Positions 1 through 53,195 of a stretch of DNA of 64,000 nt are shown piece after piece (the first letter of the stretch is position 1; each line of letters starts with the position of its first letter). Origin of the DNA: Myxococcota bacterium (lineage in GTDB: Bacteria > Myxococcota > UBA4151); the NCBI GenBank assembly GCA_036338695.1, contig JAYZBQ010000048.1, positions 1-64,000 of the forward strand, read 5' to 3'. Made by a program: the position numbers and the translations under genes. The notes beneath the pieces were generated by a model. The model did no database searches. It had not been told where the DNA came from and worked only from the letters and a program-made list of their open reading frames with translations.

Positions 1-1433
1 GCGCGCAGACCCAATCGAGCGAGGTCCGAGCGGCGCTCCGGAGCGATCGATCCGATCCCACCGATCTGGATCGCAATGGACGAAAAATTGGCAAATCCGC
101 ACAGCGCGTAGGTCAAGATCACCGCGCTCCGCCCCGAGATCGGATCGCTCGAGCCTAAATTGCCCGCCACGTTTAAAAACGCCACGAACTCATTGGTCAC
201 CGTCTTGACCCCGAGCTGAGCTCCGCAAAACGCTGCGTCCGACCAATCAACGCCCATCACCCACGCAAGCGGCGCAAGGACTTTTCCGAGAATCCACTCC
301 ATGCTCAGCGCCGGAAACCCGAAGAAGCCGCCGAGCCATGCAAAGATTGCGTTGATCAACGCCACCAACGCAACGAAAGCGATCAGCATCGCCCCGACGT
401 TGAGCGCGAGCTTGAGCCCATCGCCTGCGCCGCGCGCGGCGGCGTCGATGACATTGACCGCCTCGCTCTCATCGTGAACCTGTGCGTCCTCGTCCGCTGC
501 CGGTGTTTGGGTCTCTGGGACCATAATCTTCGCCATCACCAGGGCAGCGGGCGCCGACATGACGCTCGCAGCGATGAGGTGCCCAGCGATGTTCGGGAAA
601 TAGCCGCTGAGCATCCCCACAAAGGCGAGCATGACGCCACCCGCAACCGTCGCGAAGCCACCCACCATCACCGCCATGAGCTCGCTGTCCGTCATGCGCT
701 TGACGTAAGGGCGAATCAAAAGCGGGGACTCGGTCTGCCCGAGAAAGATATTCCCGGCTGCGGACAAGCTCTCGGGTCCCGAGGTCCGTAGGGTTCGGCG
801 CATCAGCCACGCCACGGCGCCGACGAGCTTTTGAAGCACGCCCAGGTGGTAACCGACCGCCGTGATGGACGAGAAAAAGATCAAGGTCGGCAGCACGCCG
901 AACGCAAAATAGGCGCCCACGCCCGCCCAACCGGTCTGGTTCGGCTCGATGATCGGACCCATCGGCGGGTCGCCGAGCGGGCTTCCGACCGGGACGTTGT
1001 TGGTCACCAAGTTCCCAAAGAGAAACCGAGAGCCCTCCGTGGTGAACGCAAGCAGCCCGTTGATCAGGTCATTGACCATGGTGAACAACGCCGCGCCGGC
1101 GTCGGTTTTGAGCACCAAGACGCCGAAGACGAGCTGGAGTAAACAGCCGATCCCGACCAGGCGCCAGGGGACGCTGCGACGACGCTCAGACAGCAAAAGC
1201 GCCAAGGCGATCATCACCAAGATGCCGAGGAACGAGACCGCACGCCGAGTCCAGGTGCTGGTGATGGGCACGGGTTGCGCCACCTGCGCCTGGGCGCTCC
1301 CCACCCGATGCATCGAGCGCATCATGGTCTTGAGCTGATCGGTGTTCGCGACCGCTGCCGCCGAGGCGCTCGCGCCAGCAGGCACAACAGGCGCGGCGCT
1401 CAGCGCCAACGAACACAAGGCGGCGGCGATCAT
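1..1433 (-). CDS. nupC: Concentrative nucleoside transporter (CNT/NupC family), 3' end beyond the window edge
   Basis: Not in the ORF track; translated by hand. ATG at 1433 overlaps the pdp stop (ATGA). Reads MIAAALCSLALSAAP...FLGILVMIALALLLSERRRSVPWRLV...FAFGVLPTLIFFSS...NIFLGQTESPL...YALCGFANFSSIAIQIGGIG, which are CNT-family motifs. Confidence 0.92.
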   Translation of the reverse strand, partial: MIAAALCSLALSAAPVVPAGASASAAAVANTDQLKTMMRSMHRVGSAQAQVAQPVPITSTWTRRAVSFLGILVMIALALLLSERRRSVPWRLVGIGCLLQLVFGVLVLKTDAGAALFTMVNDLINGLLAFTTEGSRFLFGNLVTNNVPVGSPLGDPPMGPIIEPNQTGWAGVGAYFAFGVLPTLIFFSSITAVGYHLGVLQKLVGAVAWLMRRTLRTSGPESLSAAGNIFLGQTESPLLIRPYVKRMTDSELMAVMVGGFATVAGGVMLAFVGMLSGYFPNIAGHLIAASVMSAPAALVMAKIMVPETQTPAADEDAQVHDESEAVNVIDAAARGAGDGLKLALNVGAMLIAFVALVALINAIFAWLGGFFGFPALSMEWILGKVLAPLAWVMGVDWSDAAFCGAQLGVKTVTNEFVAFLNVAGNLGSSDPISGRSAVILTYALCGFANFSSIAIQIGGIGSIAPERRSDLARLGLR

Positions 1434-2731
1434 GAGATCTGTGCCCGAACGCGTCCCGTTCGAGCCGACACCTCACCGTCAAATTTCAGCGCCGAACGCA
1501 GGTACCCGATCGCCTCATCTCGACCGCGTGCGCGCCAGTGCAATCGAGCGATGACCGAGTCCTCGGTGAGCGTCTGCCCAGGCTCGACGAGCCACTCGAC
1601 ACCCACCGCCGGGTCGACGTCCTGATCCGCCCGCTCTCGGCCAACGCCCACGACGTGCCCTGCGCGTGCCACCGCCTGCGCATCGACCCGTTTCAGTTGA
1701 CCGGCGACGCCGGCGGTCACCTCTTCACGGTGTGGTGCCTGGGGCAATTTCGAGGGGTCATCGATGATGCCCGAGTCACCCCCTTGGGCTGCGATCATCT
1801 CGCCAAATCGCGCCAGCGCGCGCCCCGAGTCGACCACCGCTTGGATCGCCTCCATCGCCTCATCGTCATGGCGAGCCTCGCCGGACAGACGAAGCATCCG
1901 AACGGCGAGCGCTTGGGTGAGCTCCCAGGTGTCGGCGGGTCCTTCGCCGCGCAACACCTCAATGCTCTCTTCGATCTCGAGCGCATTGCCGATGCAGCGA
2001 CCGATCGGTTGGTTCATGTCTGTAATCAGGGCCGAACAGGGGACGCCGTTCTTCTCGCTCACCGAAACCAGCGCCTCGGCGAGCGACTTGGCTTGGTCGA
2101 AGTCGGCCATGAAGGCGCCGGCGCCGAACTTAACATCGAGGACCAAGGCGTCGAGCCCCTCGCTGAGTTTCTTCGACAGAATGGAGGCGACGATCAATGG
2201 GATCGAGCTCACCGTCGCGGTCACGTCGCGCAGAGCATAGAGCTTGCGGTCTGCCGGTGCGAGCTGGCCTGTTTGACCAATAATCGAGCACCCGGTGGTC
2301 AACACCGTCCGCTTAAACGCGCCTAAGCTCAGGTCGGTGCGATAGCCAGGGATCGACTCGAGCTTATCGAGGGTGCCCCCCGTCAGGCCTAAGCCGCGCC
2401 CTGAGATCATGGGCACCTGCAGGCCTAAGGCTGCAACGATGGGTGCGAGCGGGATCGAGATCTTGTCCCCCACACCACCGGTGCTGTGCTTATCAATTCG
2501 AAAACCAGGCGCTCCCGCAAAGGAGATCGGCTCGCCCGAGTCCCGCATCGCCGCCGTCCAGACGCTGGTTTCGTGCGGACTCAAACCTTGAAAACAGATC
2601 GCCATCGCCATGGCAGCCATCTGATAATCAGGGACATCCGCCGTCGTGTAGGCGTGGATCCACCAACGTATCTCGTCGTCGGTGAGCGCCTCACCGGCGC
2701 GCTTCTTTGCGATCAAGTCCACCGGATTCAT
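1430..2731 (-). CDS. pdp: Pyrimidine-nucleoside/thymidine phosphorylase
   Basis: DKHSTGGVGDK, SGRGLGLTGGTLDKLE, ADRKLYALRD and SILSKKL motifs; 433 aa; next to deoC. Confidence 0.95.
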   Translation of the reverse strand: MNPVDLIAKKRAGEALTDDEIRWWIHAYTTADVPDYQMAAMAMAICFQGLSPHETSVWTAAMRDSGEPISFAGAPGFRIDKHSTGGVGDKISIPLAPIVAALGLQVPMISGRGLGLTGGTLDKLESIPGYRTDLSLGAFKRTVLTTGCSIIGQTGQLAPADRKLYALRDVTATVSSIPLIVASILSKKLSEGLDALVLDVKFGAGAFMADFDQAKSLAEALVSVSEKNGVPCSALITDMNQPIGRCIGNALEIEESIEVLRGEGPADTWELTQALAVRMLRLSGEARHDDEAMEAIQAVVDSGRALARFGEMIAAQGGDSGIIDDPSKLPQAPHREEVTAGVAGQLKRVDAQAVARAGHVVGVGRERADQDVDPAVGVEWLVEPGQTLTEDSVIARLHWRARGRDEAIGYLRSALKFDGEVSARTGRVRAQIS

Positions 2732-2740
2732 GGGCGGAGC

Positions 2741-3580
2741 CTAGTAACTTCCTGACGCGGTACCGCCCGTGACGATCGTCACCGATGAGCTCGCGCCCAC
2801 ACGCGTCGCCCCGGCGCGCACCATCGCCTCAACGTCTGCTTTGCTGCGTACACCGCCGGAGGCTTTCACCCCAAGCTCTGGACCGACGATGCGCCGCATC
2901 AACGTGATGTCTTCCACCGTGGCGCCTGCTTTATCAAAGCCCGTGCTGGTTTTCACGAACGCAGCCCCTGCGGCTTTGGACAACGCGCAGGCGATCACCT
3001 TCTCTTCTTCGCTCAACTGCGAGGTCTCGAGGATGACCTTGACCGGAGCCGGCGCGGCCGCTTGAACCACCGCCGCAATATCCTCCAACACCTCGGCGTA
3101 ACGCGTGGACTTGAGGGCGCCGATATTGATCACCATGTCGATCTCACGCGCCCCATCTCGGATCGCCTGCCGCGTCTCGTAGGCCTTTGCGTCCGGGTTT
3201 TGAGCCCCCAAAGGAAACCCGACCACGGCGATCGGGAGCACCGAGCTCCCGCTGAGTTCTTGCGCCACTAAACGCACATTGCATGAGTTGACGCAGACGG
3301 TCTTAAAGCCGTGCTGACGCGCCTCACCGCAGACCTTACGTAGCTGCTCGTCGGTGGCTTCGGGTCGCAACAAGGTGTGATCGATGAGCTGCGCCAGGTG
3401 CTTTGAGGTCGGGGGGGCAGGGTCCGCCCCTTTCGGCGCAGCGACCTCCGTGGTCCGCTGCCGATGAGGAAGTTGAGCGTCTTCGGCATGCCAGCTGCGC
3501 TTTGGTGCGCCGGTAGCTGGGTCCTTTAGACGGCGTTGCACCTCTGCGGTGATGGCTCGAACCAAACCGTCATTACTCAT
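2741..3580 (-). CDS. deoC: Deoxyribose-phosphate aldolase with an N-terminal extension of about 60 aa
   Basis: [31 protein letters not shown] and VKASGG motifs. Start set at ATG 3580 (MSND) after a GAGGA-rich stretch; the ORF track starts at 3586. Confidence 0.95.
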
Positions 3581-4256
3581 CCTCATCCTCCTGATGTTCG
3601 GCGCTGATGCGGTCTAACGAAAAAAGCTCGATCTGTGAACGGACGCGACGCATCCCGAGCCGAATCACAGCGCCTACGCTCAGCAACACCCACAGCAGAA
3701 TAATCGGCAGCTGATCATAGTTGAGCGCCTGAAGCTGAGGACCTACAGCCGCGAGCAAGGCAGCGATCACGGCGAGCTGAGGCATCCGCATCGCGCCAGG
3801 GGGTAGCCGCCCGGGTAGGGTCCGAAACGCAAAGGCGAAGGCGATAAACGCGCCGAGCACCAAACCAAAACCCCAACCAATCCAAACCGACGAGCTGCTC
3901 GGCTCCGGCGGAGGCGACGCAGCGACCGCTGACGCCGGCTCGGGCGGTATGCGCTGGGCGCCGGGCGCAAGCACCTCCTTGGGCGGCTCGGGCAGCTGCA
4001 TCACCAGCTTACGCATCTCGCCGATCTGCTCATCGAGCGCACGGATACGCTGCCGCTCGGCGTCCTTAGCGGCGCCCTCCGGCAAGGTCTCCATCACCCG
4101 CCGCACCTCCTCGAGCTCACCTTGAGCGCGGCTGATCTCACCGGCTAACTCAGCCCGCCGATCGGGCGGACGCGTGGCCTCGACTTGAACCTCGGTCCTG
4201 ATCTCAGCTGGCTGAGTCGACGCCAACCACCCGGCAAGGCACGTAATGATCACCAT
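3573..4256 (-). CDS. Hypothetical membrane protein (coiled coil, Pro-rich linker, about 3 C-terminal TM segments)
   Basis: 227-aa ORF overlapping both neighbours; heptad-like charged segment followed by hydrophobic stretches. Confidence 0.65.
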
Positions 4257-4876
4257 TCAAGTCGCTCCATGACCCGCCTGAGGTCTCGCCAAGCCGCCCC
4301 TTTGGCGTCCGGTCGACGCAGCAAAAACGACGGGTGAAAGGTAGGTAGAGTTGATCGACCGAGCACGTCAATCCACTGACCTCGTGCGGCGGCGATGTCG
4401 GCGCGCTCGGGGCAGAGCAGCTGCACCGCCTGCGCGCCCATCAAGACCAGCGCTTGCGGCGCCACCCATTCGACCTGCTCAGCACAAAGCGAGCGACACG
4501 AGGGCGGCGCGCCGGCGCTCGGCGCCGCCAGGTGCTTAGCGCCTACGGGGGTCACCCAGCTCACAAACACTTGCTCTTGAGCGCGCTTGAGCCCCTTCTC
4601 GATCATCGCCTGCAGCAGCGCGAGGGCGTCGCCCACGACCTGCTGACCGTCCCAGCGATCAAAGGCGGCTGAGCCGACGCACAAGAACATGACCGGCGCA
4701 GACCGTGAACCGTGGGATTGGATGACGCAGCGAGTCTCACCGAGCGAGCAGACCTGCTGCCGCCAGACCACCTCTGGCGCTGCGGACGGGGCGTCTGCCT
4801 CGCCACCCACCGGCGGGACATCAAGGAACCCCATCGCCCTCGCCTCATCGAGCCATGAGCTCAGGTGTGGGTCCAT
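4250..4876 (-). CDS. Uracil-DNA glycosylase family-4-like protein, degenerate
   Basis: C-terminal LPTFHPSFLLRRPDAKGAAWRDL and EQVEWVAPQALVLMG fit family-4 UDG; the N-terminal GE(A/G)PG motif is absent. Confidence 0.75.
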   Translation of the reverse strand: MDPHLSSWLDEARAMGFLDVPPVGGEADAPSAAPEVVWRQQVCSLGETRCVIQSHGSRSAPVMFLCVGSAAFDRWDGQQVVGDALALLQAMIEKGLKRAQEQVFVSWVTPVGAKHLAAPSAGAPPSCRSLCAEQVEWVAPQALVLMGAQAVQLLCPERADIAAARGQWIDVLGRSTLPTFHPSFLLRRPDAKGAAWRDLRRVMERLEW

Positions 4877-4941: not shown

Positions 4942-4980
4942 AAAAAGAAGAAAGGGAGCTTCTCAACGAAGCTCCCTTTC
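4942..4980 (-). terminator. Rho-independent terminator after the DsbA-like gene
   Basis: Perfect 13-bp inverted repeat GAAAGGGAGCTTC-N5-GAAGCTCCCTTTC (4950-4980), followed on the minus strand by TTCTTTTT; 22 nt past the stop at 5003. Confidence 0.85.
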
Positions 4981-5002
4981 CACGGCTACTCGCCAGGAGG
5001 CG

Positions 5003-6985
5003 CTACTTCTTCAGGTGCTTATCGATGATCGCCTTGAAGCGATCGATCGGCTGGGCACCTGCGAGGTGCTCACCGTTGATGTAGAAGTTCGGCGTGCCGC
5101 GTGCGCCGACCTTGCTGGCCAGCTTCTTATCGGCCTCGACCTTCGCCTTCGTGGACGGGCTGTTGAGATCCTTCTCCCACTTCGCCATGTCCAGCCCAAG
5201 CTCTTTGGCGAAGCCCTTGATGGGGTCGGCTCCGAGCGTGCGGAAGTTGTCAAAGAGCTTGTCGTGCATCTCCCAGAACTTGCCCTGCTTGCCCGCAGCG
5301 TGGGCTGCGCGCGCCGCGAGCTCGGCGTTCTTGTGGAAGGACAGCGGCAGGTTCTTGAAGACCACGCGGATCTTGTCGCCATACTCTTTCTTGAGCGCGT
5401 CGATCGTGTCGGCGCCCTTGGAGCAGAAGGGACACTCAAAGTCACTGAACTCGTAGATGGTGACCTTGGCGTTCTTGGGACCAAAAGCCATGTCTTCGGG
5501 GTGGTCATCGACCTTAACGGGGCCCGCAGGTTTGACCGGGGCGGTCGGCAGCTTGAAGTTCGGCGCCGGCTTGCCAGCTTCCTTCATGACCTCGGCGTAG
5601 ACGTTCTCGATCTTGATGCCCTTCTTGATCAGATCGTTCGCTTTTTTGAGCTCAGCCTCGATGGTCGGCTTGAAGCGCTCGTAAGGCAGCGCGCCGCGCA
5701 CCGGGATCCCGTTGACGAAGAAGTTCGGCGTGCCACGTGCGCCCACCTTGGCGCTCTCGGCGACGTCGGCTTTGACGATGTCTTTGACCTTCTGCGAGTT
5801 CATGTCGGTCTTGAACTTAGCGACGTTCAGGCCAAGCTCTTTCGCCCACTTCTCAAAATTGTCTTGGGTCAGGTTTTTGTAATCTGCGAACATCTTGTCG
5901 TGCATCTCAAAGAACTTACCCTGCATCCCAGCCGCTTCCGCCGCACGCGCAGCCGGCTCGGCGTTGGGGTGGAAACCCAGCGGGTTGTGCTTGTAGATGA
6001 AGTAGACGTCCTTGCCGTGGTTCTTGAGGATGTCTTCGACCGTCTTGGCGCCACGCGAACAGAAGGGGCACTCAAAGTCCGAGTACTCGACGATCACGAC
6101 CTTAGCAGGCCATGCGCCCTTGCCGCGGTAGCTCTTCTTGATCGGCACGTTCTGCCGCGTGTCGGCCGGCGGCTTGGGTCGAGCCGGAGGCTGCGCCGCA
6201 GCAGGTGCCGGCTTGTTGACCTTCGAGGTCGCGCCCTTCTCGATGATCTTGGCGTAAACATCCTTCGGCGCCACGCCCTTCTTGATCTGTTTCTGAGCAT
6301 CTTTGAGCGCCTTCTCGATCACCTCTTCAAACTTGGCGAGCGGCTGCGCGCCGCTCAGGAAGCGACCGTTGATGAAGAACGCGGGGGTTCCGCGTGCGCC
6401 CAACTTGACCGCAGCGGCCTGTTGCGCCTTGACCTTCTTCGAGAGCGCAGAATCTTTGAGGTCCGCCTTGAACTTGTCCATGTCCAAGCCGATCTCGCCC
6501 GCCCACTTATCAAAGTTGGCGTCCGTCAGCGTCTTGTAGTTCGCAAAGAGCTTGTCGTGCATCTCCCAGAACTTACCCTGTCGGCCGGCCGCCTCAGCAG
6601 CGATCGCAGCCGGCTCAGCCCGGTTGTGGAAGCCAAGCGGGTTGTGGAAGAAGGCGACGCGCAGATCTTTGCCGTACTTGCCCTTCATCAACGAATCGAT
6701 GGTCTTGTTGACGCGATTGCAGAAGGGGCACTGGAAGTCGCTGACCTCGACGATGGTCACGAGCGCCTCGGGGTTCCCTTTGGTGACCGCATCACCCACC
6801 GGGATCTTGTAGATCGGCTCGGCGTTCAGGCACTCTTGGACGGCGTCCGAGTTGCAGTCGATGTCGTCATCAGCCGCCACAGCAGTCGCCGGCGCAGCGC
6901 TCTGCTGGCCGAAATAGAAGCCGGCACCGCCGGCGATTAACATCACGAGGAGATAGGCTCCCGCTCCGCCTCTAGCTTCGTTCAT
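5003..6985 (-). CDS. Membrane-anchored DsbA-family oxidoreductase with three thioredoxin domains
   Basis: Three SDF(Q/E)CPFC sites, each followed by GKF(W/F)EMHD and a GARGTP cis-Pro loop; N-terminal TM anchor. Confidence 0.92.
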   Translation of the reverse strand: MNEARGGAGAYLLVMLIAGGAGFYFGQQSAAPATAVAADDDIDCNSDAVQECLNAEPIYKIPVGDAVTKGNPEALVTIVEVSDFQCPFCNRVNKTIDSLMKGKYGKDLRVAFFHNPLGFHNRAEPAAIAAEAAGRQGKFWEMHDKLFANYKTLTDANFDKWAGEIGLDMDKFKADLKDSALSKKVKAQQAAAVKLGARGTPAFFINGRFLSGAQPLAKFEEVIEKALKDAQKQIKKGVAPKDVYAKIIEKGATSKVNKPAPAAAQPPARPKPPADTRQNVPIKKSYRGKGAWPAKVVIVEYSDFECPFCSRGAKTVEDILKNHGKDVYFIYKHNPLGFHPNAEPAARAAEAAGMQGKFFEMHDKMFADYKNLTQDNFEKWAKELGLNVAKFKTDMNSQKVKDIVKADVAESAKVGARGTPNFFVNGIPVRGALPYERFKPTIEAELKKANDLIKKGIKIENVYAEVMKEAGKPAPNFKLPTAPVKPAGPVKVDDHPEDMAFGPKNAKVTIYEFSDFECPFCSKGADTIDALKKEYGDKIRVVFKNLPLSFHKNAELAARAAHAAGKQGKFWEMHDKLFDNFRTLGADPIKGFAKELGLDMAKWEKDLNSPSTKAKVEADKKLASKVGARGTPNFYINGEHLAGAQPIDRFKAIIDKHLKK

Positions 6986-52134: not shown

Positions 52135-52986
52135 TCAATCGAGGATGAAGTACTCGGGGTCTGCAGCGACGCCATCGACCAACACCTCGTAATGTAGGTG
52201 GGGACCTGTCGACCGACCAGACATTCCAACGCTGCCGATGCGGTCCCCGCGACGCACTGTGTCTCCAGCGCGCACCGCAGCATCCGCGAGATGTGCATAC
52301 TTCGTCATCATGCCAAAGCCGTGGTCAACCATCACCACCAGCCCGTAACCTGTTTGTTCTTCTACCTTGATCACCGCCCCATCGGCGGGGCTCACGATCG
52401 GTGTGCCGATCGAGGCCGCAAAATCGATCCCGCGATGCATGGTGTTGCGACCCGTCATCGGGTCTTTGCGCATACCGAACCTGCTGGTCAGCCAGCCTTT
52501 CGTCGGACGCAGCGCCGGGGTTGAGGCCAGGCGAGCTTGCATCGCCTCAAAGTGACGCGCCAAAGCCTCGAGCTGCTCGACTTGATGGTTCGCCTCATCG
52601 AGCAGCCCGTCCATGCGCTCACTCATGAGGTGCTCTCGCGCTTGGCGCAGCAACGGGTGCTCGCGATCACCCCAAGGCGAGTCGTACTTGGAGTCCGGGT
52701 CGTCGACCGGCCCGATCGCCAGTCGGCGCCCGGGGTCCGAGAGCTGTGCCAGCTCGCGCAGACGCTCCTCAAGCGCGTCGACCTGCTCGAGCCGCTGCGC
52801 CAGCGCCCCCATCTTTTCCTGCGTTCGCTCGACCTGAGCGCGCAGCTCAGTGCTGCGGTCTTCGCCCTGTTGCACCTGCCGACCCTGAAGCCAGCCGCGC
52901 ACCCCAAAGAAGCTCACCAGCGCAACGCCTACGACCGCAAACAGCGCGCTCGCTACGACGGCACGGAGCCATCGTCGCCGAAACAC
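52135..52986 (-). CDS. M23 family metallopeptidase (TM, coiled coil, catalytic domain)
   Basis: HRGID, YAHL and STGPHLHYEV motifs. Confidence 0.92.
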   Translation of the reverse strand: MFRRRWLRAVVASALFAVVGVALVSFFGVRGWLQGRQVQQGEDRSTELRAQVERTQEKMGALAQRLEQVDALEERLRELAQLSDPGRRLAIGPVDDPDSKYDSPWGDREHPLLRQAREHLMSERMDGLLDEANHQVEQLEALARHFEAMQARLASTPALRPTKGWLTSRFGMRKDPMTGRNTMHRGIDFAASIGTPIVSPADGAVIKVEEQTGYGLVVMVDHGFGMMTKYAHLADAAVRAGDTVRRGDRIGSVGMSGRSTGPHLHYEVLVDGVAADPEYFILD

Positions 52987-53195
52987 AAAGTACCGCGTAC
53001 GCCCGCTTCGTTCGGGCGTGAGCGTGACCGTGTAGTGCTCATTGCGGCGGTTTTTCAGCGCGACCTCCCAAGCGACCGGCTCTGGCTAGAGTCTGGTCGT
53101 ACGCCCGTCAAGCATTCCCCTCGCCCATGACAGCGTCCACGAGCGCCAGTTTAGTCCTATTTTGGGCGCAAGCAAGAAGCGGCGACAGGCAGCGC

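Follow-up and report, generated by a model that had tools for sequence, protein, structure and literature searches.

We analysed a 64,000-nucleotide stretch of a Myxococcota genome (the window) and found that its deoC gene encodes a deoxyribose-5-phosphate aldolase (DeoC) with a short N-terminal helix. This helix is likely an encapsulation peptide that would load DeoC into a bacterial microcompartment (BMC) like that of Haliangium ochraceum (HO-like), whose shell and aldehyde dehydrogenase (AldDH) genes lie on contig C9 of the same assembly. With confidence a little above even, we further propose that, in roughly one third of the phylum, HO microcompartments are dispersed deoxyribose-5-phosphate organelles, supplied by the uptake and phosphorolysis of nucleosides and marked by tagged DeoC as signature enzyme. 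In the window's marine family the organelle would be pared down to a single BMC-Tdp, without RpiB or PduL as cargo and without deoB, and a new conserved linker motif takes the place of a four-cysteine module. The arrangement of distal tagged DeoC in HO genomes is already in print (Sutter et al., 2021, PMC8217296). What is new here is the nucleoside-catabolism operon context, the co-occurrence counts, the second conserved linker motif and the single BMC-Tdp. The features of the window are as follows.

3..1433, minus strand: NupC-type Na+/nucleoside transporter, running off the window (family assignment)
1430..2731, minus strand: pyrimidine-nucleoside/thymidine phosphorylase (family assignment)
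2741..3580, minus strand: deoC, deoxyribose-5-phosphate aldolase of 279 aa, 60 of which form an N-terminal extension (translation and TIGR00126)
2741..3400, minus strand: aldolase barrel of DeoC, predicted from residue 59 (AlphaFold2 model; D147, K210 and K239 invariant in 24 homologues)
3401..3520, minus strand: linker, residues 21-60, predicted to be mostly disordered, 38% Pro+Ala (model and composition)
3449..3499, minus strand: second conserved island RSWHxEDAxL, residues 28-44, family-specific (conservation), at the position of the four-cysteine module of most relatives
3521..3580, minus strand: encapsulation-peptide-like helix, residues 1-20, with L6, V7, I10, V14 and L18 (predicted helix, selection, profile rank)
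3587..3592, minus strand: ribosome-binding site AGGAGG, 6 nt before the deoC ATG at 3580
3573..4256, minus strand: membrane protein of 227 aa, without a known family, whose stop overlaps the start of deoC; its position is kept in 5/5 family relatives
4250..4876, minus strand: uracil-DNA-glycosylase (UDG)-superfamily gene, which probably opens the unit, with a terminator-like hairpin upstream
4949-4981: terminator-like hairpin upstream of the UDG-superfamily gene

The deoC gene and its start site

The window's DeoC scored 260 bits against TIGR00126 (cut-off 117) in a profile search, and together with the predicted barrel fold, a catalytic Asp and two Lys this identifies it as a class I aldolase of the DeoC/DERA type. 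Judged by motif rather than by direct alignment, D147, K210 and K239 would be the equivalents of the E. coli catalytic triad. It was the sole DeoC found in the genome. Its closest named relatives are mostly Myxococcota records, and the sequencing runs that contain the gene are mostly marine.

The preliminary description read the extension as part of the protein, and the start site it used held up. In addition to the ribosome-binding site, the database gene calls begin at the identical Met, and from residue 14 to the aldolase core there is no ATG, GTG or TTG. For those codons this rules out a start downstream of the peptide, and that reading was rejected. The deoC stretch is unbroken in the independent DNA contig X6, as is 2600-3743 in another (X1), and zero differences from the window were listed in 3400-3580 for the independent DNA contigs. 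Two RNA-library contigs also span the tag-to-core stretch, which does not imply that they originate from transcripts.

The N-terminal helix

Residues 3-19 of DeoC were predicted by AlphaFold2 to form a helix (pLDDT about 67-70), in agreement with the 15-20 residue terminal alpha-helix of encapsulation-peptide cargo. Mean identity over the helix was 70% across six genomes of the window's family, and I10 and V14 were kept in at least 90% of 24 DeoC homologues. Within the genus, pN/pS was 0.18 for the helix vs. about 0.5 for the flanking linker, which indicates that residues 3-19 are under purifying selection. The amphipathic spacing noted in the preliminary description stood only in part: L6, V7, I10, V14 and L18 do share one face of the predicted helix, but 33% (Eisenberg) and 11% (Fauchere-Pliska) of shuffles matched its hydrophobic moment, which alone is not above shuffled sequences on these two scales.

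Scored with a profile of 18 DeoC tags from other families, the window's N-terminus ranked 1 of 8976 genome ORFs, which, with the predicted helix, bears out the earlier view that DeoC has an encapsulation-like peptide. The match was weaker on more distant profiles, with rank 9 of 8976 on a profile of sugar-phosphate-utilisation (SPU) DeoC tags from other phyla and rank 212 of 8976 on an AldDH-tag profile. On the SPU profile, the relic helices of three genus g99 genomes without shells scored above the window's peptide. The peptide sequence by itself would not prove the role, for which we rely on the shell operon, on selection and on synteny. A homologue search with residues 1-62 returned only 9 near-identical proteins of the window's family. 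N- and C-terminal genome scans for other tagged cargo with three home-made profiles left only DeoC and AldDH as credible. A high-scoring ORF at window 52537-53130 was rejected as tagged cargo; it is antisense to an M23-peptidase-like gene.

The linker and its conserved island

The Pro/Ala-rich linker described earlier was confirmed in composition (background 17% Pro+Ala), and residues 24-53 had pLDDT under 50 in the AlphaFold2 model. It is not featureless. Two variable stretches (about 30% identity, pN/pS about 0.5) agree with a flexible, poorly conserved linker, and between them lies a conserved island that had been missed. At residues 28-44, 9/18 columns were invariant in the six family genomes, with 64% identity and a pN/pS of 0.23. 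The database protein P0010 keeps the helix and lacks most of the island.

Most shell-linked DeoCs (L025-L047, L197-L285) have a C..CxxCxxC module, then a helix and then a GAxR[IV]G motif, which repeats the aldolase's own C-terminal GATRVG motif. The four-cysteine module was present in 52/52 shell-positive and 0/41 shell-negative genomes of family f10, and is missing from the window's family and from G060. It is probably metal-binding; Pfam gave only sub-threshold 4Fe-4S matches for the motif in G046, and pLDDT was under 50 over the module in the model of a four-cysteine homologue (G036). The extension of the window's DeoC gave no Pfam matches. By sequence comparison, RSWHxEDAxL stands in place of the four-cysteine module in the window's family, a new observation. 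A loosely similar RGxWxD is found where the cysteines would stand in records L117 and L122.

The nucleoside-catabolism neighbourhood

Five genes follow each other on the same strand in the order UDG-superfamily gene, 227-aa membrane protein, deoC, pyrimidine-nucleoside phosphorylase and NupC, so the earlier reading that deoC is co-encoded with nucleoside import and phosphorolysis proved correct. Upstream of this unit (5003-6985, minus strand) lies a gene whose 660-aa product has a tandem array of three DsbA-like thioredoxin domains. Contig C47 overlaps the window start by 143 bases at 97%; its next gene is presumably purine-nucleoside-phosphorylase-like, and the order NupC to this gene is contiguous in the relative G001.

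No deoB was found in any of the six genomes of the window's family, which makes the mutase step of the pathway a guess. On C48, the contig that carries deoC, there is a phosphoglucomutase-family gene (C48:99222-99635, L195) with orthologues beside deoC in G014, G037, G049, G054 and L114. Orthologues of this gene flank deoC in genomes without deoB, and its product may be an alternative phosphopentomutase.

The shell operon and the rest of the genome

The preliminary description held that deoC encodes cargo for a shell whose genes lie elsewhere, and proposed a genome search for shell genes. A genome-wide profile search gave four matches to PF00936 and one to PF03319, all at C9:27.2-30.5 kb. The operon there encodes BMC-Tdp, BMC-H, BMC-P, a 468-aa AldDH and BMC-Ts. 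The closest natural solved structures of the shell proteins are HO-5815, HO-5816 and 5DIH. AldDH is of the PRK15398 (PduP) type (646 bits), and its N-terminal tag ranked 1 of 8976 when scored with a profile built on the AldDH tags of other families. This operon, and a tag that tracks shells among relatives (see below), support the idea that DeoC would be cargo of a separately encoded shell. All six family genomes have an intact operon; their BMC-H, where compared, is 92-97% identical, and each of the six has one BMC-Tdp (split over two contigs in G002). At about 24.9 kb on C9 (L006:10919-10950), a few kb from the operon, the sequence reads like the 3' end of a tmRNA/tRNA gene.

Similar peptides had been anticipated on AldDH, RpiB or PduL. 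This was borne out for AldDH; rpiB lies on C63 and is untagged, and PduL, acetate kinase, deoB and class II aldolase were not found in the window's assembly. The sole Fe-ADH of the genome has no tag, and no enzyme that would recycle NAD+ or CoA inside the shell was identified in the genome. A PF01515 match was rejected as a stand-alone Pta; it lies in a 764-aa frame that resembles a malic enzyme.

A BMC-P triplet is present in 5/5 family relatives, two of the three genes standing beside a class II aldolase (PF00596) in a satellite locus. The window's assembly is 93.6% complete and has one BMC-P and no PF00596. Since the unrelated flanks of the satellite region are missing too, a gap is likelier than a loss. 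Four runs searched with the G001 satellite at 80% likeness yielded one 1.7-kb X1 contig covering a BMC-P gene and its neighbour, not assignable to the window's organism. The satellite aldolase (L077:6344-6994 in G001, and equivalents) has a tag-like C-terminal extension in G041, G045, G046 and G057, and none in the window's family or f10.

Co-occurrence of the tag with shell genes

We searched 61 genomes, 59 of which had DeoC (27 BMC-P-positive, 4 PF00936-only, 28 with neither), and called DeoC tags by reading the upstream frames by eye, with support from a profile scan. The tag was present in 26/26 readable BMC-P-positive genomes (in the 27th, G033, DeoC runs into the end of a contig) and in two of the four PF00936-only genomes (G015, G019). 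The other two (G037, G040) have one PF00936 gene, no BMC-P and an untagged DeoC. The 28 genomes with neither shell family included one clear case of a tag, G044 (99% complete). Over the phylum, BMC-P was found in 113/301 genomes. G031 has six BMC-P and no PF00936 match, and G039 has seven BMC-P.

In f10, 131 genomes were searched and 126 had DeoC; BMC-P was found in 54 (52 at E 1e-26 plus two more), tallies that include the unpublished G169. Ninety-three genomes were read. The 52 shell-positive ones leave out G169 and a genome that had no DeoC match. From the 73 shell-negative genomes 41 were taken, on score rank and by manual choice across genera; of these 41, three were tested at the strict threshold only, and PF00936 was checked for only four. 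The DeoC-tag profile from other families, at 10 bits, matched 50/52 shell-positive and 0/41 shell-negative genomes; the AldDH-tag profile, at 5 bits, matched 34/52 and 7/41. Within genus g28 the tag is present in six shell-bearing genomes and lost in four without BMC-P.

An extension in BMC-less relatives had been named beforehand as a result that would speak against a shell role. The intact tag tracks shells; on the other side stand G044 and the decayed helices seen by eye on DeoC in 30/41 shell-less f10 genomes. Tag-like or decayed helices without detected BMC-P occur in the f10 genera g11, g49, g74, g88 and g99 and in G044 (L110), apparently a natural series of tag decay.

In a phylum tree of 58 DeoC sequences (G012 was left out as too divergent) the tagged DeoCs form two clades, one with the untagged, shell-less G025 nested inside it, and the 52 shell-linked f10 sequences form one clade. 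Because tagged DeoCs fall into few clades, and hence reflect few events, the tag/shell counts are not independent. In G032, G041, G045, G055, G057 and G060, deoC lies directly behind the satellite of two BMC-P and class II aldolase, and in G041 a phosphorylase follows it, which suggests that the window's unit split from such a locus.

Comparison with known microcompartments

The accessible part of Sutter et al. (2021, PMC8217296) describes HO-type I genomes with a distal tagged PF01791 aldolase (DeoC) and proposes nucleic-acid catabolism for the HO type; the native function is called enigmatic there, and the distal tagged DeoC is a remark only. The window's genome resembles HO type I in a main locus (C9) of only shell genes and an N-terminally tagged AldDH, with a single BMC-H and a single BMC-Ts, and in a tagged DeoC at a third place; 5/5 family relatives also share the type's three BMC-P genes, distributed over the main locus and a satellite that holds a PF00596 aldolase. 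It differs in having one BMC-Tdp in all six family genomes vs. two in the type as described in that part of the paper, and is therefore called HO-like, not a strict HO type I member. It also differs in the satellite missing from the assembly, in a deoC placed inside a nucleoside uptake and phosphorolysis unit, and in a linker with a family-specific motif and no four-cysteine module.

The preliminary description had linked DeoC-type aldolases to SPU loci. For the window's DeoC, membership of an SPU locus was rejected; deoC, the untagged rpiB and the shell lie on C48, C63 and C9, respectively, without PduL. As in SPU compartments, there is a DERA with a helix-bearing N-terminal extension (60-70 residues in SPU) and an AldDH partner; unlike them, the window's DeoC is not in the shell locus, which has no tagged RpiB, no PduL and no PduS. 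The SPU core chemistry (tagged DERA and acylating AldDH) is present in the genome, and the two enzymes would be packed together. According to the accessible part of Dwyer et al. (2024, PMC11585597), the extension is found on all SPU DERAs, a trimmed enzyme is active on deoxyribose-5-phosphate, and exit of acetyl-CoA is proposed when PTAC is absent and BMC-Tdp present.

A 2025 preprint (PMC12747264), in its accessible part, reports SPU-type compartments with flavoprotein-DERA fusions in Hodarchaeales and deep Myxococcota. In the archaeal system, tagged enzymes were no longer recruited to the shell once their tags had been deleted, and flavoprotein-DERA was among the enzymes predicted to carry a tag. 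The window's family shares the tagged DERA and AldDH with these compartments, whose operons, unlike its own, are complete and encode RPI, PTAC and a fused DERA. Family f3 resembles the preprint's kind, with complete SPU-like operons that include RpiB (L048, L050, L052, L055, L056). The f3 DeoC has a tag, an inserted domain of roughly 190 aa (flavoprotein-like by eye, no Pfam match) and the cysteine module.

Alternative explanations

The tag might work and DeoC still be a secondary cargo, in an organelle that mainly handles the aldehyde of the class II aldolase (from a pentulose- or deoxyhexulose-1-phosphate) with deoxyribose as a side substrate. That aldolase stands beside two BMC-P genes not only in 5/5 family relatives but in 24/30 type I HO loci in the accessible part of the Sutter supplement (PMC8217296), and its best family matches, all below cut-offs, are fuculose-, ribulose- and related 1-phosphate aldolases. 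We consider this unlikely. The class II aldolase has no C-terminal extension in the window's family, whereas DeoC is tagged, and in the same supplement only roughly one in three of those aldolases has a possible tag, compared with DeoC tags in all 26 readable BMC-P-positive genomes.

It is less probable still that the helix is left over from an ancestral microcompartment enzyme and that DeoC became cytoplasmic after its move into a nucleoside operon. The relic helices in shell-less f10 genomes and G044 fit such a history. So does the window's family, which has lost the second BMC-Tdp, the four-cysteine module and the connection with the satellite locus, and so does the fact that this is the genome's only DeoC. 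Against it, the shell operon is intact in all six family genomes, the helix is more strongly conserved than the flanking linker, and it matches working-clade tags better than relics do. A role of the helix and second motif in self-association, or in binding a non-shell partner such as the phosphorylase or the adjacent membrane protein, like other aldolase extensions, is the most improbable reading. Unrelated helical DeoC extensions do exist in shell-less family f7 and in G028, a Thermotoga DERA of solved structure extends beyond the minimal barrel, and the RSWHxEDAxL island is left without an explanation. Yet f7-type extensions do not match the tag profiles, and co-occurrence and synteny point toward shells.

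Proposed pathway and its meaning

With DeoC loaded into the C9 shell, as we prefer, NupC would import nucleosides and the phosphorylase would cleave them, functions taken from family assignments. The mutase step may be carried out by the phosphoglucomutase-family protein at C48:99222. Deoxyribose-5-phosphate would enter the shell, where DeoC would convert it to acetaldehyde and pass this to the co-packed tagged dehydrogenase. Cofactors would be recycled, and the product may leave as acetyl-CoA, as proposed for SPU compartments without PTAC in the accessible part of Dwyer et al. (PMC11585597).

In a literature search that left subscription papers and preprint supplements aside, we found neither an experimental function of HO compartments nor the nucleoside-operon context of deoC, which those sources may describe. 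HO shells are the most used engineered microcompartments and the main model shell of the field. The basic idea is already published, so a specialist will find little surprise in it. The operon context, satellite placement and co-occurrence make the remark of Sutter et al. directly testable, with deoxynucleosides as inducer and DeoC as cargo. The DeoC helix is also a candidate short natural loading tag; tags often load foreign cargo poorly, according to the accessible part of PMC6056538. The place of deoC among nucleoside-breakdown genes suggests a likely role for the HO organelle type.
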